A stretch of DNA of 45,677 nt from Spirochaetota bacterium (GCA_018815555.1 JAHIWF010000158.1:1-45677); one strand, 5' to 3'; positions 28,655-37,850 are shown, counted from the first letter of the stretch. The notes: a model not told the origin generated them from the letters alone. Numbers and translations are program-made.

Positions 28655-29701
28655 GTGAAACTGCTTTCCCACGCAGCTGCAGTACTTACAGGAATCTTCC
28701 TTACCGCACTACTCCTCACGCTCAGAGCAACTTTGCCGTTTTTGGGAATGCCGGTGTCGGCAGTAAGTCTGATCCGTATGCTGTTGCCGGCTATTATCCT
28801 ACTTGGGGCCATAATCCTCAGCGTCGACACACTGATTCGTAAAGACAAAGCCTGGATTCAGTTTTCCGGCCGCAGTAAAACCGTGCTGGCAATCATCAGC
28901 TTCATTCTTACTATGGCCATATGTACAGTAGATCTGCTGACCGGTTTTGTACCTTTCCTGATTCTGCCAGGGCTGCTGGCTATCAGTGTGATGCTATGGA
29001 ACCATCCGCGCATACTGGGCTCGCTCAGCGTACTGGCAGTAATTCTGCTGGCAGCCGGACAGCTGCTACTGCACAAAGCGCTGACTATGGATTTTATAAG
29101 CTTGCTCGGCTTCGGCCTGCTCTTGTCGTTTTTCGGTTCGGAGCTGGTTCGGCGCAATCTGGCTCCCACCGAAGCCAGGCTAAAATCGCTGGAAGCCGAA
29201 AACCAGGAACTCTGGAACCTTTCCTACCGCGACTCGCTTACCGGCCTGTTCAACCGGCGCTACATGCAGCAAACCACCTCGCATATTTTTGCGCGCGCCG
29301 TGCGCTATCGCGAACAGCTGCATGTGCTGATGCTGGATATTGACCATTTCAAGAAGGTTAACGACAAACTGGGACACGCAGTCGGCGACGAGGTACTAAA
29401 AGCGGTTTCGGCCACCATCCAGTCCTGCATCCGGTCCAGCGACGTGGCGGCCCGCTACGGCGGTGAAGAATTTATCATTTTTATTGTGCAGGCCAATTCC
29501 GAGCTTACCCAGTTTATCGCCAACCGCATCCGCGATGGTGTGGCTGCGCTTAATATTTCCGGGGTTCCCTGGCCGGTAACCATAAGCATAGGCGTAGCCG
29601 GGCTGCAAGACGGCGACAACCAGGAAGGCCTCATCGAACGGGCCGACAAGTTTCTGTATACCTCAAAACACCAGGGGCGCAACCGCGTTTCAGGATTCTG
29701 A
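28655..29701 (+). CDS. membrane diguanylate cyclase
   Basis: About 6 TM; DSLTGLFNRR, DIDHFKKVND, I-site RSSD, RYGGEEF; GTG start after GGAG. Confidence 0.9.
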   Translation: MKLLSHAAAVLTGIFLTALLLTLRATLPFLGMPVSAVSLIRMLLPAIILLGAIILSVDTLIRKDKAWIQFSGRSKTVLAIISFILTMAICTVDLLTGFVPFLILPGLLAISVMLWNHPRILGSLSVLAVILLAAGQLLLHKALTMDFISLLGFGLLLSFFGSELVRRNLAPTEARLKSLEAENQELWNLSYRDSLTGLFNRRYMQQTTSHIFARAVRYREQLHVLMLDIDHFKKVNDKLGHAVGDEVLKAVSATIQSCIRSSDVAARYGGEEFIIFIVQANSELTQFIANRIRDGVAALNISGVPWPVTISIGVAGLQDGDNQEGLIERADKFLYTSKHQGRNRVSGF

Positions 29702-30892
29702 AAGCGGTACCTCCAGTCTGCAAACCAACCCGGGTCCGCGCGACCAGCTGACAGAGCCATCTACCTGACCCACCAGCGAACGTATTATAGACAGACCAAG
29801 ATTACCGCCGATTTCCGGGTCCAGACTATCCGGCAGCCCCGGACCGTTATCGCCAATGTGCAGCGAGACATGCTTTGTGTCTGACTCCAGGGTAATGGCT
29901 ATGCATAAGTCCGCAGTACCGCGCAGTCCGTATTTCAGCGAATTGGTTACCAGTTCATTGATAATCAGTCCGAGCGGGATGCTAGTCTCCAGGGGGATTC
30001 TGGTCGGGGCCAGCGAATACTGTATCCGCGGTGCCCGTGGTGCGGCCGAGGCGATGGTATGCACCAGGTTGGGAATATAAGAAGCCAGATCGATACTGGA
30101 AAAATCCTCGGACTGGTACAGCTCGGCATGCACCAGGGCCATGGCGCTGATGCGATTGCGTGCTTCGTTCAGGGTATTCTGCACACTGGCATCCTGGGAT
30201 TCGCTACTCTGCAGGTGCAGCAGGCTGTCCACAATCTGCAGATTATTCTTGACCCGATGATGAACTTCCTTAAAGAGCACCGTATTTTGATCTAAAGCCT
30301 TCTGCAGCCGCACTTTTTCGTGCTCCAGTTCACGGGTGCGCTCCTGCACCCGGGCTTCCAGCGTTTCGTACAGAATGCCGTTGCGCAGTACCAGGGCCAG
30401 CACTCCGGCCAGTTTGTCCAGGCTGGAAACCAGATTGCCCAAATGCTGTTCATCCATCAGCCCGAAGAGGAACATGACTCCGCTACGATTATTTTCGTAT
30501 AACAGTGGAATTATGATGGTCAAACCAGCGTCCAGTCCGATTAGGCATTCTTCGATGCGGCGCAGCAGTTCATCCTCCGGGGCAGCCTCCTCCGGCCGGC
30601 AGAAATACTGGATATGCGGCAACTCATGCGCCAGCTCCACCAGCTTCTGCATGTCGGCACTGTCGGCCAGACTGCGCCGGCGTTCTGGAACTGCCGAAAT
30701 CAGGCGGTGCAGGTGCTCGGAGCCGTTACCGAGACACTGAAATACCAAGACAGTTTTTACCCCCACAAAATGCCGCAGCCGTTCGGCCAGCAGCCCGGCG
30801 CTACCCGAAGGGCTGTCGGCCGCCGACAACACGCTTTGCAGAAGATCGGATAAAAGTATGCCGAAGGCGGCTTCGTCGCTATGCGCCGTCAT
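29690..30892 (-). CDS. cytoplasmic HisKA_2-type histidine kinase with a GAF-like N-terminus
   Basis: EVHHRVKNNLQ, NELVTNSLKYG, DNGPG, NLGLSII; no TM; 14-nt overlap with DUF1638. Confidence 0.88.
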   Translation of the reverse strand: MTAHSDEAAFGILLSDLLQSVLSAADSPSGSAGLLAERLRHFVGVKTVLVFQCLGNGSEHLHRLISAVPERRRSLADSADMQKLVELAHELPHIQYFCRPEEAAPEDELLRRIEECLIGLDAGLTIIIPLLYENNRSGVMFLFGLMDEQHLGNLVSSLDKLAGVLALVLRNGILYETLEARVQERTRELEHEKVRLQKALDQNTVLFKEVHHRVKNNLQIVDSLLHLQSSESQDASVQNTLNEARNRISAMALVHAELYQSEDFSSIDLASYIPNLVHTIASAAPRAPRIQYSLAPTRIPLETSIPLGLIINELVTNSLKYGLRGTADLCIAITLESDTKHVSLHIGDNGPGLPDSLDPEIGGNLGLSIIRSLVGQVDGSVSWSRGPGLVCRLEVPLSES

Positions 30893-31466
30893 AAGCCCCC
30901 AGATCTTTCAGGGCAGCGCGGATGGACAGTTCCAACTGCTGCAGGCCGGTGTGTTCGATCCGCACTGGCATGCCCATAAACGCTTCTATTTCCTTGATGG
31001 TACCGGAGGGGATAGTACTGACGCCGGTATCCAGATACACCAAGCCGCTCATAGAATCGGCCATAAAACGCCTGGCAAGGTCCGGGTCGGCAAAGCCCAG
31101 CTCGGTTTTAAAAACCTCAGCCCAGCGTTCGGTCCATTCCGGCATAAAGAAAAAAGAACCCTTGCTCCGCAACTCACAATAACGCGGCGAGCCAAGCATT
31201 ATCTCGCAGCAATTTACCCCAGCAGTACGCCGACAAACTGAAGGTCGTATAAACTCATCCATATTATGGCAGCAGTCGCCATACACCAACAGGGTTGGCT
31301 CCGGGTTGAGCAAGGCAGTGTGCAGAATCTGGTCCAGCTTTTCCGGCTGCATGTGCAGCATGGAGTCAAGAAAACTTAAGCGCAGCCCGGACAGCAGTTC
31401 CGGAGGCAGTCTGGCAAGTTCTTGTCGGAAAATGCCACAGGCCAGGGTGCGGACTTTGCTACTCAT
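30879..31466 (-). CDS. DUF1638-family protein
   Basis: LACGIF..E, LHMQPEKL, LVYGDCC, NCCEIMLG, FFFMPEW, YLDTG; ATG 31466 overlaps the end of the upstream gene. Confidence 0.78.
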   Translation of the reverse strand: MSSKVRTLACGIFRQELARLPPELLSGLRLSFLDSMLHMQPEKLDQILHTALLNPEPTLLVYGDCCHNMDEFIRPSVCRRTAGVNCCEIMLGSPRYCELRSKGSFFFMPEWTERWAEVFKTELGFADPDLARRFMADSMSGLVYLDTGVSTIPSGTIKEIEAFMGMPVRIEHTGLQQLELSIRAALKDLGAYDGA

Positions 31467-32478
31467 AAGCCGACCGGGCAATGACCTGTTTCACTGCCTC
31501 AAGTACAGCCGGATCGGTTCGCCAGGGCAGCTCGGCCCCGGAACTGCAGAGCATCCAGCGCTGGTCGCCCCGCATCGAATGCAGCAGAGCTTCCACCTGG
31601 CGTTGTACTCCGTCTACCCCGTAAGCGTCAAAGTGCGGTCCGGAGATATTACCCAAAAGCAGGCAGTCCGGCCCGGCTTCCTTCCTGGCCGCGTCCAGTG
31701 AGTCCTGCGGGCTGAGCAAAAAGCCGGCCAGATTAGGAAGGTTTGTATACAAAGACAAGCTGCCGGACAGCCGGTTGCCGCCATGATGGAAAACCAGTGG
31801 TACAGGCGAGAAGGCAAAGGCCTGGTGCAAAATCGGCAGAGCAAGCTTGCGCAGATTGTCCATATCCAATAACTCTGGATTGGCCATCATTACCGGGCAG
31901 GAAAGCATGTTTACTCCTGCAGCCGCATAGGCCTCCGCCATGCCACGGAAGTGCTCAAGGCATTTTTCGGCCAGGGCAGCAGCAGCAGCTTTGTCGAACA
32001 ACAAGGCATCCAGCCAGTTTTCCATGCCGATCAGCAGTATCGGCAGGTCTACCGGCGCAATAAGCGGTGCTACCAACAGCCGCTGGCCACCATACTCCGC
32101 GGCCATAGCCCTGGCTGCCCCGAGCAGATACCCCAGCCCAGCATCCTTGTACGGATCGGGCAGCGGAACCTCCAACGCGGCCGCCACTGTCGAATAAGGC
32201 GGCTTGCCGACATTCGGCGCAGCCTGCGGCTGCGCTCCCACCGGAGCACCAAAAGCCGCAGCATGATAGGCAAACAAAAAGGGCGTAAAAACCACATCCG
32301 GGTCCAGCAAGGCCACTGCCGCCCGCTGGCCGCGTACATACAGCTCCGGCTGGCTGAAATAATCGGCCAGAGGCAGGTCGGCCAGCCTGGCACCGAACAC
32401 ACTGGTTACCAGGCCATACGGTACCCGGTCGCGCTCCTGCCCGGCCAGCGTTGCCCCTATCCGCTCCATGTGGGTCAT
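31459..32478 (-). CDS. UroD/MtaA-CmuA (MT2 methyltransferase) fold protein with a degenerate Zn site
   Basis: ERIGATLAGQERDRVP, AAAFGA, LIGMENWL, FHHGG, LLGNIS, SSGAELP; ATG 32478 after AAGGAG. Confidence 0.8.
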   Translation of the reverse strand: MTHMERIGATLAGQERDRVPYGLVTSVFGARLADLPLADYFSQPELYVRGQRAAVALLDPDVVFTPFLFAYHAAAFGAPVGAQPQAAPNVGKPPYSTVAAALEVPLPDPYKDAGLGYLLGAARAMAAEYGGQRLLVAPLIAPVDLPILLIGMENWLDALLFDKAAAAALAEKCLEHFRGMAEAYAAAGVNMLSCPVMMANPELLDMDNLRKLALPILHQAFAFSPVPLVFHHGGNRLSGSLSLYTNLPNLAGFLLSPQDSLDAARKEAGPDCLLLGNISGPHFDAYGVDGVQRQVEALLHSMRGDQRWMLCSSGAELPWRTDPAVLEAVKQVIARSAYE

Positions 32479-32489
32479 ACTCAACTCCT

Positions 32490-33170
32490 TCAGCCGGCCG
32501 GGGCTGCCGCCGGTTTTTTGGAAAGGCCCTCTGCCAGGCGTTCCATTAATTGCGGTGCTTCCATGGCCGAATCCGCCGTTCCGTCCGCTCCAAGCTCCTG
32601 CACCAGGTCAGGCCGCAGTCGGAAAATGGCACCGCCCACCGCCAGTTTTATGCTGTCGCCCAGATTTCGCCGGTCCAGTTCGACCCGTACCGCCTTGATA
32701 TTCAGTGCGGTTGTAAGCATCATGGCAGAAACGCCGATAATGCAGGCCCCATGCCGCACCGCAGCATCGACAAAATCGGCAGCCGGAACATCATTGCCCA
32801 GATCCACTACCTGCCAGCCGTGTAGGCGCAAAAATGCTATTACCATGCGGCGTCCAAGCACATGAAAGTCATCCTCAATATTCCCCATGATAATGACACC
32901 GCGGCTGCCATCGCCTACCGGTGCGCTGCCGCTCTTTAAATACTCATCCAATAGCAATTCAGTTACCTTGCCCGCAACATAGCTTTGGGCCAATGAAATT
33001 TTACTTTCACCCCACATCTCCCCGGCTCTGCGCAATACCGGCTCGACCAGACCATGTATCAGCTCAGGATAGCCGCTGCGCTCGGCCTCTTTCCGTAATT
33101 TTGCTACTGCCCCATCCAGATTCCCGGCCAGAATATCATCGAGCAGTTCTATTTCCTGATACTCAAACAT
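32490..33170 (-). CDS. corrinoid (B12-binding) protein, MtaC/MttC-like
   Basis: Cap domain GEMWGESKISLAQ; DxHxxG motif DDFHVLG, DLGNDVP, GVSAMM, VGGA; GGAGG SD. Confidence 0.9.
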   Translation of the reverse strand: MFEYQEIELLDDILAGNLDGAVAKLRKEAERSGYPELIHGLVEPVLRRAGEMWGESKISLAQSYVAGKVTELLLDEYLKSGSAPVGDGSRGVIIMGNIEDDFHVLGRRMVIAFLRLHGWQVVDLGNDVPAADFVDAAVRHGACIIGVSAMMLTTALNIKAVRVELDRRNLGDSIKLAVGGAIFRLRPDLVQELGADGTADSAMEAPQLMERLAEGLSKKPAAAPAG

Positions 33171-33190
33171 GCCCGTCCTCCATAACCATA

Positions 33191-33219
33191 ACTATAAGGC
33201 TAAGCTCTGGCTGTGTCAA
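33191..33219 (-). promoter_or_regulatory. near-consensus promoter of the corrinoid operon
   Basis: Minus strand TTGACA-17-TATAGT. Confidence 0.7.
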
Positions 33220-33312
33220 AAAAGCGGGGCAAGCGAGCGAACTATCAAGGCAGGCTGCCAGGTCTTTGATACAGCTTTACCAGACGGCCATCGGGCACGT
33301 ATACTTGGCACT

Positions 33313-34320
33313 ATGAACACACTCAAACATCTGGCCGTGCGCGGCAGCGACATCCTGGTCGCAACTGATTCCATAAATCCTGACCAAACTGTGCCAGTCG
33401 ACTGCTGGCTGCATCCTGTCCTGCCGGCGGAGTTTTTGGCTCTGGCAGAGGACCATTGCCCCTTGTCACTGGCCGTCACGCCAAGCCGCTATGTTGTTCA
33501 TTCCTTTTCTGTTGACCAGCTGTCGCCGGCAAACTGCAGCTGGCTGCCGCTACGCGACCTGGTATACCGACTGCCCGAAGAAAGCTGGCTGCCGGCGGCC
33601 CGGGCCATGGCCTATGCCAACTGGCATCGCGGAAACCGCTTCTGCGCACGCTGCGGCGCGGCCATGGCGGATGCCGCACAGACAGCAGCGGCAGGTACAG
33701 CTGCGGCCGCTACAGTTTGGCTGTCCGGCAGCCCAGGCGCCGCAGCGGAGGCCCCAACAGCGCTGCCTACTCCGCCTTCTGCCGTCAGCCCAGGTTCCGG
33801 GTCTGGCTCGAGTGTCGAAGCGGCGGCCGTACCAAAGGCAGCACCTTTTGCCTCTGCCGCGCTCGCCGCCGCCGAGCCGGGAGAGCTGGCACTGCGCTGC
33901 ACCGGTTGCGGCCAGCTGCTTTTTCCGCGGATTTCGCCGGCTATCCTGGCGGTGGTGGTAAAGGACGGCAAGCTGCTCTTGGCCAGAAACGCCGCCAACA
34001 AGCAGGGCTTCTGGAGCCTGGTAGCCGGTTTTATGGAACCAGGCGAGCGCTTCGAAGACTGCGTCCGGCGCGAAGTGCGCGAGGAGGTTGGCATCGAGGT
34101 GCAGGTAGACGGCTATCTTGGTTCGCAGCCCTGGCCCTTCCCCGACCAGCTAATGGTAGGATTTTCGGCCAGCTGGGTGTCCGGCGAGCTAAAACCCGAC
34201 GGCATCGAGATTGCCGAGGCGCTCTGGTTTGCTCCCGATCAGCTGCCGCCGGTGCCGCGCAGCGGCAGTCTTTCGCGCCGCCTGATCGATCAAGCCTGCA
34301 AAAAGCTGTCAGCTAGCTGA
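33313..34320 (+). CDS. nudC: NAD(+)/NADH diphosphatase with an Ala/Pro-rich insertion
   Basis: RFCARCG...CTGCG..FPRISPA; Nudix box GFMEPGERFEDCVRREVREEVG; SQPWPFP; ATG 33313 is 7 nt after TATACT. Confidence 0.88.
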   Translation: MNTLKHLAVRGSDILVATDSINPDQTVPVDCWLHPVLPAEFLALAEDHCPLSLAVTPSRYVVHSFSVDQLSPANCSWLPLRDLVYRLPEESWLPAARAMAYANWHRGNRFCARCGAAMADAAQTAAAGTAAAATVWLSGSPGAAAEAPTALPTPPSAVSPGSGSGSSVEAAAVPKAAPFASAALAAAEPGELALRCTGCGQLLFPRISPAILAVVVKDGKLLLARNAANKQGFWSLVAGFMEPGERFEDCVRREVREEVGIEVQVDGYLGSQPWPFPDQLMVGFSASWVSGELKPDGIEIAEALWFAPDQLPPVPRSGSLSRRLIDQACKKLSAS

Positions 34321-34424: not shown

Positions 34425-35096
34425 ATGACCACTACAAACCTGGATACACTTACAGGCCTGCCCAAGCGCGAGGCCCTGGAAAAAGCGCTGGATCAGTTGA
34501 TGGAGAACGGCGATACCGGTTGTCTGACTCTGGTACTCTGCGATGTGGACAAATTCCTGGAGATAAACCAGGCGCATGGGCATGCCGGCGGCGACGCGGT
34601 ACTAAAACTGGTGGCAAAGGCACTGCAGACTGCCGGCGACAGTCTGGCTATCCGCTACGGCGGTGACGAGTTCGCTGTCATTTTTAAGGGTGTGGAACGC
34701 GAGCAGGCCTTCCTACGCATGGAAAAAATCCGGGCCGAGCTGGCTGAAATCAAACAGATAGAAGCCGACGGCAAGCAGCAGGCTTTGCGCTTCAGCATCA
34801 GTGCCGGTATTTCGGCCTGGCCGATCGACGGCAGCAATCAGGCCGAACTGATGCGCAAGGCCGACGCCGCGCTCTACCGGGCCAAACTTGGCGGCCGCAA
34901 CAAGATCATGCTGGCCTACGAGGAAAAAATGGTGCCCAAGACCGCCCATTTTACCGCCACCCAGCTGGAGCGCTTAAGCGATCTGGCCAAAGACCAAGGT
35001 GTTGGCGAAGCGGTGCTGCTGCGTGAAGCCCTCGATGAACTGCTAACCAAGTACGTGCATGGCTTCCAGCGCACTGGCATGCCCACGGCTGGCTGA
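34425..35096 (+). CDS. GGDEF domain fused to a C-terminal ribbon-helix-helix-like domain
   Basis: DTLTGLP, DVDKFLEIN..HGH..GD, RYGGDEF, ADAALYRAK; tail KTAHFTATQLERLSDLAKDQGVGEAVLLREALDELLTKY. Confidence 0.87.
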   Translation: MTTTNLDTLTGLPKREALEKALDQLMENGDTGCLTLVLCDVDKFLEINQAHGHAGGDAVLKLVAKALQTAGDSLAIRYGGDEFAVIFKGVEREQAFLRMEKIRAELAEIKQIEADGKQQALRFSISAGISAWPIDGSNQAELMRKADAALYRAKLGGRNKIMLAYEEKMVPKTAHFTATQLERLSDLAKDQGVGEAVLLREALDELLTKYVHGFQRTGMPTAG

Positions 35097-35150: not shown

Positions 35151-37850
35151 CTAGAGGTTCTTTGCCTTGATGCGGGCCATAGCCCACTCGGTGTAGGTTC
35201 GCACCCGCTTGTCCGGATCGGCCTGCAGCTGCTCCAGAATGGTCTGGCCGTCCTCGGTATTCAGCCGCTCCAACGCCTTGGTTACCTGCACCCGCACCTC
35301 CTGGTCCGGATCGCGTGCGGCCAGCACGATGCCGCGGAAGGCAGAAGCGCTGCCGATGGTCGAAAGCATCACTGCGGCCGCCCGTCGTACCTTCGGGTCA
35401 CGGACTGCCAGTTTGCGTATCCAGCTTTCCACATAGCCGGTACTTTCCAGTATTTCCACTATATACGGCTTCAAGGACGGGATGCCTTCTTCCAGAAGTT
35501 CCACCATGGCCTGTTCGCCGCTTCCCCCCATCAGCTTAAAAGCCATACTGAGCTTGTCTTTAAACACACCCTTGGCATCCTTAAAAATATCGATCAGCTG
35601 CCGGATAAATTTGCGCTGCTTCTTGCGGGCAATACATTGCTGCAGTTCTGCTGCCTCAAAATAGTCCTCGGCCAGACTGTCCGTCAGGATCTGTAGAGAC
35701 TTTTCTTCGTCGCTTAAGGCCAGACCTTCGAGGGCCGCCGCCTTAACCGAATCCACTTCGTTTTTGTCCGCCAGCACCTCGGCCAGCTTCAGCAGTGCAG
35801 CTTCCGAGCCATAAGCACCAAGGGCCCGGCCAACTTCGCAGCGCACCCGTTCGACCGGGTCACGCAACATTTCCGCCGCCCGGCTGATGGTTTTAGCCTC
35901 GTCATACTCCACCAAAGCCCATACCGCGGCTACCCTGACTTCAGGATCGGCATCTTCCAGGCTCTCGCGTATTTCTTTCAGGAAAGTTTTGCGTCCGGTG
36001 GCCGGCAGGCCGGCTATCAGAGCGGCCCGGACACTGGCGTCATCGGACTGCAGCAGGGCGGCTGCACGTTGTTCCAGCACTTCGATATCGGTTTCGGCCA
36101 GAAGCTTCATGAAATTTTTAAGTTCATCAAGCGGCAGGGTCGGCAGATGCTCCAGCAGGAACTGTATGCTGTAATCCAGCTTCATGCTGCCGATCAGCCG
36201 GAAGGCGTCCATACGCACTGCATGCGGATAAGCCTCGCGCCCCTGACGGACAATCTTTAGCACAAAGGGCAGTACAAAGCTCGGGGGCATCTTGGCCAGC
36301 ACCGTGCGCAACCTGTCCCGCAGCGGGAAGGCCGGATCCACCAAAAATTCGAACAACATCGGACAGAAAATAAAATCACCGTGCACCGGCAGAGACTCGA
36401 GCACCAGGTCCAGTAACTGGAAGCGCGCCGCCTCGCTCTGCGGCTCAGCTTCTGTCGCATCAGATACAGTGGCATTTCCGCTGGTGCCGGCGGCCGCTGC
36501 CGCCGCGGTCGCTGAAGCCGCTGCAAGCAATGCTGCTGCGTCAGCGCGCAGTCGGCGCAATTCTTCGCCCAGGCTGAGCAGTGCCTGGTCGGTGCCGCGC
36601 AGCTGAACGGCCTTCAGGCCGGCACTGTACAATAGCAGATTAGCCTGCGACAGCGGCCTGCTGCGCACCAAGGTACTGATACGGGTCCAGAGCGGCAGAA
36701 TATGCGCGCGGTCGCCGGTCTCGGCTAACAGCTCCGCCCCGAGCAGCAGCGTACCATAGGCAGCATCCTCGGGTAGCTGTTCCAGAAAGGAATTGATGCG
36801 CACGCTGGATGCGTTGGTCAGCAGACGGCGGATGTGCTCCAGATCCTCACTGTCATCCGGCGAGGCCCGCAAGAACAGCTTATACAGGGTTCCTGAACGT
36901 TCCAGGAACAAGGCTGCCGAAAAACGCAATTCCATATCCGCTCCAGCCAGATAGGAGATGGCCAGATTTACATCGTCGTCGCGAGCAGGATCCAGCAGTT
37001 CCAGGATATGGCCAGCCTGCACGGTAGACAGCTCTGTATAGTCCACAACAAACAAGTCATTAAAGTCTTTCTCCAGCCTCAGGCGGGCAGCCTGGCGCAC
37101 TTCGAACACCGGGTCATCCAGATATAAAGCTTTTATACGTGAATAAAAGATTTCTCGATCCTGTACAGGGGCTTCCTGCACTACAGTCTTGCGGATAAGC
37201 GCGTGCGAATCATCCAATGATTCCCAGACACTGCGGACAGAGCGCGGCTCGCTATCATGAATCAGGATTTTGACAGCAAAAAAGCGCGAGGCCCATTCCG
37301 GATCACCGGTCATCTCCCGAATCTGGTCGATAGCGTCGGCCAGGAAAGCGGCGGCGGCTTTTCCGTCGAACGGCTCGCCTTTACCGGCCAAAGCGATCTG
37401 CTGATAGGGCAAAAAATCATGCCTGGAGGCCAGCCACTCGCGGATCGCGGCCTGCAGCGACCGGTTTTGCAGGGCAGCCTTAAAGCAGATAAAAATTGAA
37501 GCTGCCGGAGAGAATTCCAGCAGCAGGCGGCACAGACCTTCCTTCGGATGAGCCTGGAATTTTTGCAGCCAGAGCGAATCCAGGCCGGTCAGGACCGGTA
37601 GATTAAGCTCGTGCTTACGGGCAAGCTGTACCAGCAGGCGCACATTAGCCTGGGCACGACGCAGCGGCAGCTTTTTCTTTATCAGAGAGGCTGTATCCTC
37701 AGTCTGGCTTAATTGCCTAACCAGCCGCCGCAGACTCAGCTGTGAAAGTCGTACAAATAAAAGCAGAAGCAATGCACCGGCCAGCACCAATGCCACGGCT
37801 AAAACCAGCCACAAAGGCAAACGGGTAAAAAATTCCATGATACTCTTCAT
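35151..37850 (-). CDS. membrane-anchored HEAT (PBS-lyase-like) repeat protein
   Basis: N-terminal TM; repeats DPEWASRFFAV, DPVFEVRQAA, DADPEVRVAAVWAL, DPVERVR, DPKVRRAAA, DPDQEVRVQV, DPDKRVR. Confidence 0.85.
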   Translation of the reverse strand: MKSIMEFFTRLPLWLVLAVALVLAGALLLLLFVRLSQLSLRRLVRQLSQTEDTASLIKKKLPLRRAQANVRLLVQLARKHELNLPVLTGLDSLWLQKFQAHPKEGLCRLLLEFSPAASIFICFKAALQNRSLQAAIREWLASRHDFLPYQQIALAGKGEPFDGKAAAAFLADAIDQIREMTGDPEWASRFFAVKILIHDSEPRSVRSVWESLDDSHALIRKTVVQEAPVQDREIFYSRIKALYLDDPVFEVRQAARLRLEKDFNDLFVVDYTELSTVQAGHILELLDPARDDDVNLAISYLAGADMELRFSAALFLERSGTLYKLFLRASPDDSEDLEHIRRLLTNASSVRINSFLEQLPEDAAYGTLLLGAELLAETGDRAHILPLWTRISTLVRSRPLSQANLLLYSAGLKAVQLRGTDQALLSLGEELRRLRADAAALLAAASATAAAAAAGTSGNATVSDATEAEPQSEAARFQLLDLVLESLPVHGDFIFCPMLFEFLVDPAFPLRDRLRTVLAKMPPSFVLPFVLKIVRQGREAYPHAVRMDAFRLIGSMKLDYSIQFLLEHLPTLPLDELKNFMKLLAETDIEVLEQRAAALLQSDDASVRAALIAGLPATGRKTFLKEIRESLEDADPEVRVAAVWALVEYDEAKTISRAAEMLRDPVERVRCEVGRALGAYGSEAALLKLAEVLADKNEVDSVKAAALEGLALSDEEKSLQILTDSLAEDYFEAAELQQCIARKKQRKFIRQLIDIFKDAKGVFKDKLSMAFKLMGGSGEQAMVELLEEGIPSLKPYIVEILESTGYVESWIRKLAVRDPKVRRAAAVMLSTIGSASAFRGIVLAARDPDQEVRVQVTKALERLNTEDGQTILEQLQADPDKRVRTYTEWAMARIKAKNL

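Follow-up and report, generated by a model that had tools for sequence, protein, structure and literature searches.

The stretch of DNA considered here (hereafter the window; 45,677 nucleotides, GCA_018815555.1 JAHIWF010000158.1:1-45677) comes from a Spirochaetota bacterium and carries four consecutive minus-strand genes for a corrinoid protein, a UroD/MtaA-like protein, a DUF1638 protein and a histidine kinase. A preliminary description of the same DNA held that this module of methyl-transfer parts was repurposed for sensing; the present analysis extends it with a dedicated GAF domain in the kinase, published DUF1638 genetics and a second copy of the module in the same genome. The corrinoid protein gene (32490-33170, 226 aa) has GGAGGA ahead of its start, and its stop is separated by an 11-nt gap from the ATG of the UroD/MtaA-like gene (31459-32478, 339 aa), for which the likely start, ATG 32478, follows AAGGAG. 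The latter gene overlaps the DUF1638 gene (30879-31466, 195 aa; likely start ATG 31466, giving MSSKVR) by 8 nt, ATGAGTAG, and the DUF1638 gene overlaps the kinase gene (29690-30892, 400 aa) by 14 nt, ATGACGGCGCATAG. The tight coupling first described for these four genes is thus borne out by their coordinates, gap and overlaps.

Ahead of the operon lies the sigma-70-like promoter that had been proposed for it, TTGACA-17-TATAGT (33191..33219, minus strand), which matches 11/12 positions, ends 20 nt before the corrinoid ATG and is the joint best match in the region, tied with one other site. The scan returned 12 promoter-like sites where shuffles gave 3.5 ± 1.6, so that any one site is no more than suggestive. 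A promoter so close to the ATG leaves a short leader without room for a riboswitch; a search of the whole window with Rfam gave no family at or above its gathering score and therefore found no cobalamin riboswitch. The terminator scan gave 7 sites against 6.1 expected, none of them convincing 3' of the kinase gene. Public sequencing runs that contain this stretch comprise three DNA runs, all groundwater metagenomes and possibly its source, with no RNA run listed.

The corrinoid protein consists of a cap and a Rossmann domain, matched in Pfam by B12-binding_2 (25.5 bits) and B12-binding (79.5 bits). Its DxHxxG motif, D101-F-H103-V-L-G106 (32853-32870, minus strand), is intact as previously stated, and D101, H103 and G106 are invariant in 73/73 aligned orthologues, for which the mean column identity is 56%. 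The best NCBIfam model is TIGR02370, at 91.4 bits below its cut-off of 215.3, followed by MtgC (78.6 bits, cut-off 310) and MtbC (75.8 bits, cut-off 350), while CarH scores 54 bits against a cut-off of 400. The protein is closest to methyltransferase-cognate models of the MtaC/MtbC type, well above CarH and far under every curated cut-off. A Pfam scan found no MerR-type DNA-binding domain on it.

The UroD/MtaA-like protein matches Pfam URO-D at 118.6 bits, and the profile of its family finds MtaA (4ay7) as its best solved relative (E 2.9e-22, positions 5-334). A HemE role was considered and rejected: uroporphyrinogen decarboxylases match at 2e-8 or weaker, against 2.9e-22 for MtaA. Its score with TIGR01463 (MtaA/CmuA) is 55 bits, below the cut-off of 235.4. 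Conservation is high, with a mean column identity of 52%, invariant H231, D61 and R265, and near-invariant D305 and D316. In the profile alignment, 'LHICGN' of MtaA corresponds to 'vfHhgGn' in the family and 'PGCG' to 'tsgaD'. The His and two Cys of these MtaA motifs are presumably its zinc ligands, and on that assumption the earlier label of a 'Zn-less' MT2-like protein is apt: the His of the H-x-C...C site is kept (H231), and both Cys are replaced family-wide. H231, H232, D305 and D316 might be alternative metal ligands. According to the accessible text of one study, zinc in MtaA activates the thiol substrate (PMC539065).

DUF1638 (PF07796) is matched at 80.5 bits against a cut-off of 27, over profile positions 1-158 of 161. 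The protein had been called Cys-rich, and it does hold 7 Cys in 195 aa, three of which (C10, C65 and C86) recur in every relative compared, distant paralogues included. An AlphaFold2 model (pLDDT 96.1) has two alpha/beta lobes. Conserved residues follow beta-strands 1-6 in turn: C10; S35/H38; G63-D64-C65; N85-C86; E110-W111; and D146-T147-G148. Read from the secondary-structure string of the model rather than from coordinates, they would lie at the usual ligand edge of alpha/beta folds. Foldseek found nothing in the PDB for the model at E<=0.001. The best VIA-align result was Z 7.8 for the PrpR N-terminal domain (2pju), with LacI/periplasmic-binding-like and receiver-like chains at Z 6-7; these values do not rise above background, and the protein is therefore left unassigned to any fold family. 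A complex prediction for DUF1638 (alignment A3) with the kinase GAF domain (alignment A2) returned 'no answer' (score 0.01, mark 0.32) and carries no weight either way.

The kinase has three parts, all encoded on the minus strand. Residues 1-192 (30317..30892) form an N-terminal domain with a GAF fold, termed GAF-X, that lacks a Pfam match; residues 209-282 (30047..30268) are a HisKA_2, HWE-type phospho-acceptor domain with the H-box HHRVKNN (95.6 bits); and residues 305-398 (29699..29980) are the HATPase_c catalytic domain (40.5 bits). The preliminary description had considered the kinase soluble, with which its hydropathy agrees: the highest 19-residue Kyte-Doolittle mean is 1.69, and no segment is of transmembrane grade. 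The GAF assignment comes from an AlphaFold2 model built on 73 sequences (pLDDT 90.5), which has 207 PDB matches at E<=0.001, headed by GAF domains such as 3p01, 3cit and those of phytochromes; the Pfam GAF models themselves do not match the N-terminus of the window kinase.

A survey of DUF1638 neighbourhoods, proposed at the outset as a check, was made with an alignment of 18 close DUF1638 homologues, which was used to scan one genome per species across 185,579 species. It confirmed 135 relatives; all locus counts given here refer to the best 80 of the 135, with open reading frames (ORFs) searched with the window's four proteins and adjacency counted strictly. The order corrinoid - UroD-like - DUF1638 - sensor is kept, adjacent and on one strand, in 66/80 loci, and in 7 further loci the sensor is adjacent and the upstream genes are lost to a contig end. 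Lack of conservation of the kinase beside the trio had been named beforehand as a refuting result, and it is not what the loci show: a sensor protein is the next gene in 77/78 loci with downstream room, the contigs of L076 and L078 ending at DUF1638. At L068 the next gene encodes a PAS-GAF-PAS protein that is cut by the contig end. Hosts, as named in the genome records, are Spirochaetota, Desulfobacterota, Bacteroidota, Planctomycetota, Verrucomicrobiota/Kiritimatiellia, Nitrospirota, Chloroflexota, Synergistia and Clostridiaceae, together with the archaeal Methanoperedenaceae and Methanospirillum; cultured carriers are Desulfopila aestuarii DSM 18488, Malonomonas rubra DSM 5091 and Geomonas sp. 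Red32. The module is patchy among 40 relatives of the window's genome, occurring in 13/24 same-family genomes and in 0/1 same-genus genome. Identity matrices of the four parts correlate (Spearman 0.44-0.72 over 63 loci and 1953 pairs, values that the kinship of the loci inflates), and the GAF domain correlates with the UroD-like protein (0.64) and the corrinoid protein (0.57) about as highly as the trio members do with one another. These correlations would be consistent with inheritance and transfer as a unit, without amounting to proof.

What is conserved of the sensor beside the trio is the dedicated N-terminal GAF domain and not the kinase core. Residues 5-200 of the window kinase align to the extreme N-terminus of 72/74 downstream proteins, and the remainder aligns only in the closest relatives. 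In Pfam, the first ~190 residues of 75 downstream proteins are silent and are followed by 0-4 PAS or GAF domains; the outputs include HisKA_2 in 13, HisKA in many, HATPase_c in 67/75 and a receiver domain in 37/75. The 8/75 proteins that lack HATPase_c are cut by contig ends, are PAS-only (L045, L059, L065), or belong to L083, where the N-terminal domain stands alone and a separate kinase gene comes next. A database search with the GAF-domain profile found 31 long proteins at E<=1e-10, nearly all of them kinases, one with an HD-GYP output and one with an added PocR domain. A fixed input domain joined to interchangeable transmitters, as in these proteins, is the signature of a sensory module.

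Gene fusions tie DUF1638 to both of its neighbours. Longer proteins with DUF1638 numbered 14 in a dedicated search: nine DUF1638-(PAS)-kinase proteins, four UroD-DUF1638 proteins and a partial DUF1638-PAS protein. DUF1638-kinase fusions also occur in loci L024, L061 and L037 and in the second module copy of the window's own genome. Searched against 1.84 billion representatives, the DUF1638 profile matched 2121 proteins at E<=0.001, of which 188 reach E<=1e-30. The 150 best matches include 19 proteins of at least 420 aa with DUF1638 at the N-terminus and 12 in which it is C-terminal, preceded by 170 or more residues that usually correspond to a UroD-sized region. Several same-family relatives have open frames of 614-668 aa with DUF1638. 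Because DUF1638 is fused to each neighbour in different lineages, it is likely to sit between the methyltransferase-like protein and the kinase.

A second, diverged module lies on the minus strand of contig C119 of the same genome (L013 2-3242), where the 3.8-kb contig cuts the kinase gene. Its corrinoid protein is 30% identical to that of the window, with DxHxxG kept, and its UroD-like protein is 26% identical; its HisKA kinase begins with a divergent DUF1638 followed by a GAF-like stretch. Pfam (E 0.027) and pairwise BLAST (E 0.001) give this DUF1638 weak matches, and the subfamily profile A3 supports it at E 1.8e-4 in a search of the whole genome. Across eight DUF1638 sequences, including that of C119 and those of similar second modules in L046, L089 and L091, the residues C10, E16, S35, C65, R80, C86, W111, W115, T147 and P167 are invariant.

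The usual catabolic partners were sought in the same genome (3.66 Mb, 415 contigs, 95.7% complete) and in the flanks of the 80 loci. The genome has no match for RACo_C_ter (RamA), MTTB, MtaB, MtmB, MtbB/Dimeth_Pyl or MtrH. URO-D genes occur in it just twice, once in each module copy, and its only Pterin_bind matches are a 312-aa frame and a 938-aa frame with a B12-binding match, the first of the size of FolP and the second of that of MetH, which they presumably are. The 242 flanking ORFs (119 downstream and 123 upstream) hold no known MT1, MT2 or RamA family. The preliminary description had noted the lack of both MT1 and RamA at the operon, and this now extends from the window to the rest of the genome and to the flanks elsewhere. 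Two-component proteins abound in these flanks, which show no conservation beyond that; the next co-directional gene encodes a response regulator in 10 loci (L016, L019, L031, L032, L036, L048, L051, L056, L061 and L079), with an HD-GYP domain in L031 and a GGDEF domain in L032. Among 14 related genomes with a strong module-type DUF1638, only 2 hold a RamA-like gene, so kinase-linked DUF1638 seems to work without RamA; in genomes G027, G031 and G009, RamA has a weak, classical-type DUF1638 match at a distance of 1.3-2.6 kb.

Taken together, the comparative evidence argues strongly for a corrinoid-based sensor input to histidine kinases. The trio is likely the sensory input of the kinase, and the four genes probably constitute a self-contained cobalamin-based signal-input device for a two-component kinase and not a catabolic methyltransferase pathway. 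Synteny, DUF1638-kinase fusions and the failure to find the usual catabolic partners all support the repurposing for sensing that had been proposed. In the mechanism envisaged, the MtaC-like protein would hold its corrinoid base-off/His-on, as its invariant DxHxxG motif suggests, and the MtaA-like TIM-barrel protein would dock on it as MtaA does on MtaC. The latter protein would control the cobalt's state, the likeliest route being transfer of a methyl group between cobalt and a small non-thiol donor or acceptor. DUF1638, with three conserved Cys at the C-terminal edge of its beta-sheet, would sit between the methyltransferase-like protein and the kinase, given its fusions on both sides, and may either keep the cobalt reducible or report its state to the GAF domain. 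The dedicated GAF domain would then take this input and switch autophosphorylation by HisKA_2/HATPase. That the methylation state of the cobalt is the signal is put forward tentatively.

Several points weigh against this interpretation. Contact among the four proteins is read from fusions and gene order, and the synteny and fusions would also suit a regulator that does no more than detect the substrate of an enzyme system. The loci were found with DUF1638 patterns of this subfamily, so that the counts describe the subfamily and not all DUF1638; MT1 and RamA were judged absent for known families, in a genome of 415 contigs that is 95.7% complete. Individual loci also depart from the pattern. 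L036, the sole locus with room but without a downstream sensor, has the order corrinoid - DUF1638 - response regulator and no UroD-like gene; the adjacent HisKA kinase of L092 is unmatched by the window's GAF domain; the DUF1638-kinase fusion of L037 lacks that domain; the downstream proteins of L045, L059 and L065 are PAS-only; and, in L072, a CdhD-like gene and a ferredoxin lie upstream of the module. From the literature come two further points: in the accessible text of a fitness study, Phaeobacter inhibens needs DUF1638 for its split MetH to make methionine, which is a metabolic role (PMC5764234), and, in that of another study, the mec cassette clusters a kinase, a corrinoid protein and a UroD-family methyltransferase (MTI) within a catabolic set (PMC9768040).

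The module could instead sense redox state, oxygen or corrinoid supply without any methyl transfer, the kinase reading corrinoid loading or Co(I)/Co(II)/Co(III); this is a serious alternative, although the less probable one. DUF1638 would then act as a thiol- or metal-based redox partner and the UroD-like protein as a non-catalytic docking scaffold. The carriers are largely anaerobes; in the model, the DUF1638 Cys after beta-strands 1, 3 and 4 would occupy the usual Rossmann-like cofactor site; the thiol-activating Cys pair is gone from the UroD-like protein; and a RamA to restore Co(I) was not found. All of this suits such a sensor, but the conservation of the UroD-like protein (52%, with invariant H231, D61 and R265) argues for a ligand or catalytic site over a scaffold, and three accessory parts are not obviously needed for supply sensing.

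It is unlikely that the genes encode an ordinary corrinoid methyl-transfer system, catabolic or biosynthetic, in which the partner methyltransferase belongs to an unrecognised family and the kinase, detecting the substrate on its own, controls expression. The corrinoid protein does score best with methyltransferase-cognate models (91 bits for TIGR02370, the top model, with MtgC and MtbC next), the UroD-like family has its best match among solved structures in MtaA (E 2.9e-22), and the P. inhibens genetics and the mec cassette just cited both point in this direction, as does the existence, according to the accessible text of a further study, of widespread UroD-homologue clusters of unknown substrate (type 1 mlp; PMC10418091). 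All NCBIfam scores are, however, far under the family cut-offs; neither a second methyltransferase nor RamA was found in the 242 flanking ORFs or the own genome, and the flanks are unconserved. Covalent fusion of DUF1638 to kinases in many lineages would be an unusual arrangement if one were an enzyme accessory and the other a transcriptional regulator, a dedicated N-terminal kinase domain travels with the trio, and most loci have no DNA-binding regulator alongside.

A narrower proposal, which we regard as quite improbable, is a B12-dependent chemosensor in which the Zn-less MtaA-like protein would transfer a methyl group from an environmental or metabolic donor to cobalt and on to one of the three conserved DUF1638 Cys instead of coenzyme M, so that S-methyl-DUF1638 would switch the kinase through its GAF domain. 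If true, this route would be a second, cobalamin-based form of protein-methylation signalling beside the SAM-based CheR/CheB system and would give DUF1638 a function. Light sensing, in which photolysis of a methyl- or adenosyl-corrinoid would be the signal and the UroD-like protein and DUF1638 would re-form the dark state, gives all four parts a role and has a precedent in CarH-type regulators, whose B12-binding domains are photoreceptors, and a weak match to the CarH model (54 bits against 400), but is highly improbable because the hosts are subsurface organisms and methanogens: many loci come from groundwater, mine and sediment genomes and from methanogens, the public runs with the window stretch are only groundwater metagenomes (possibly its source), and the corrinoid protein is nearer to methyltransferase-cognate proteins than to CarH and has no MerR-type domain.

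Other genes and loci add observations of their own. GGDEF diguanylate cyclase genes flank the operon. On one side, a membrane-anchored GGDEF protein is encoded at 28655-29701 (plus strand), convergent with the kinase gene, which its 3' end overlaps by 12 nt. On the other side, the divergent gene 33169-34320 (plus strand) encodes a NudC-like NUDIX protein in which an Ala/Pro/Ser-rich low-complexity stretch splits the zinc-ribbon region; because ATG 33169 overlaps the start of the corrinoid gene, the true start is probably downstream. It is followed by a GGDEF domain fused to a ribbon-helix-helix domain (34425-35096, plus strand) and by an 899-aa ORF (35151-37850, minus strand), whose product has a single hydrophobic segment at its N-terminus and a long, helix-rich stretch of repetitive sequence, HEAT-like by eye. 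Elsewhere in the genome, contig C306 (L096 4986-7655, minus strand) encodes a third MtaC-like corrinoid protein of 235 aa, with cap and B12-binding domains, directly downstream of a 650-aa protein for which Pfam gives no match; a single-domain response regulator is encoded nearby (L096 7951-8421, plus strand), and another corrinoid-linked signalling pair may be encoded here.

Among the other loci, L091 1-5275 holds tandem modules, in which a first corrinoid - UroD-like - DUF1638 set and a 1131-aa PAS/GAF protein without a listed kinase domain precede a full module. In two of the closest relatives (L016 3977-5065; L023 4036-5109, minus strand), a divergent 357-363 aa B12-binding_2 + B12-binding protein is encoded directly upstream of the module and adjoins a GGDEF gene (L016 3369-4781; L023 3448-4026). 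PocR-domain sensors lie directly upstream of the module at L036 276-3218 (a PocR-PAS hybrid kinase) and L048 3187-5259. At L071 (5596-7005), where the four-gene order is kept and the sensor is adjacent, the corrinoid and UroD-like genes are joined in frame; the join was left out of the fusion tally because an internal deletion removes the corrinoid end and the first ~55 UroD-like residues, and the joined gene is either a decaying copy or an assembly artefact.

If the sensory interpretation is correct, many anaerobic bacteria and some archaea would use methanogen-type corrinoid methyltransferase parts to sense instead of to feed on methyl compounds. This would be a third regulatory use of B12, beside riboswitches and CarH/AerR-type proteins, and a new two-component input module made up of three accessory proteins and a dedicated GAF domain. 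It would also call for caution among annotators, since 'MtaA/MtaC-like' gene pairs in non-methylotrophs need not then mean methylotrophy. The module would offer a testable handle on DUF1638, the role of which has been open since the 2018 fitness study tied it to B12-dependent methionine synthesis, and bench tests are feasible because cultured carriers exist.

The four-part module is real, widely distributed and apparently undescribed; no description of it was found in the literature outside subscription journals and supplementary files. Its nearest counterparts by composition are MtaABC and MtbA with MtmBC, MtbBC or MttBC, which likewise place a two-domain DxHxxG corrinoid protein beside a UroD-superfamily TIM barrel. 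Those systems have an MT1, RamA and a Cys metal site, whereas the module has none of these and scores under the family cut-offs, its genes being tied instead to DUF1638 and a kinase. CarH/LitR and AerR share with the module the use of a B12-binding domain as a sensory element. Each of them is one polypeptide whose target is DNA or a repressor and whose trigger is light or B12 binding; the module instead combines a methyltransferase-type corrinoid protein, lacking a MerR-type domain, with two accessory proteins and a kinase.

The split MetH and glycine-betaine demethylase systems of Rhodobacterales likewise have a DUF1638 gene beside a B12-binding protein and are tied to corrinoid methyl transfer, so far as the accessible texts go (PMC5764234; PMC12478193). 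In the fitness study of Price et al. (2018), DUF1638 (PGA1_c13340) was co-fit with the three-part methionine synthase and a RamA-like protein in P. inhibens, and DUF1638 and RamA had near-identical phyletic patterns in alpha-proteobacteria; in its accessible text the authors gave DUF1638 no specific function (PMC5764234). The accessible text of a 2025 paper calls the DUF1638/RamA-like pair predicted cobalamin rechargers (PMC12478193). The split-MetH DUF1638 thus co-occurs with a RamA-like activator and serves metabolism, whereas that of the module is linked or fused to a kinase, mostly without RamA.

The type 1 mlp clusters of Kountz and Balskus are, like the module, widespread in anaerobes and combine MtaA-like UroD homologues with a corrinoid protein in the absence of an H4folate methyltransferase (PMC10418091). 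They differ in having two or three Mlps and a Ram/RACE activase; in the accessible text of that paper no sensor is mentioned, no DUF1638 is reported and the only kinases are unrelated metabolic enzymes in a figure legend, and the authors propose methyl-sulfur or methyl-selenide metabolism for these clusters (PMC10418091). The mec cassette of anaerobic dichloromethane degradation comes close to the module in setting the MecA kinase, the MecB corrinoid protein and the MecC UroD-family MTI side by side (PMC9768040). It adds the MecE, MecF and MecI methyltransferases, a response regulator and a transporter, whereas the module has no further methyltransferases and includes DUF1638, which is not reported for the cassette in the accessible text (PMC9768040). 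MecA has a PocR domain according to the same text (PMC9768040), and one database kinase joins a module-type GAF domain to PocR.

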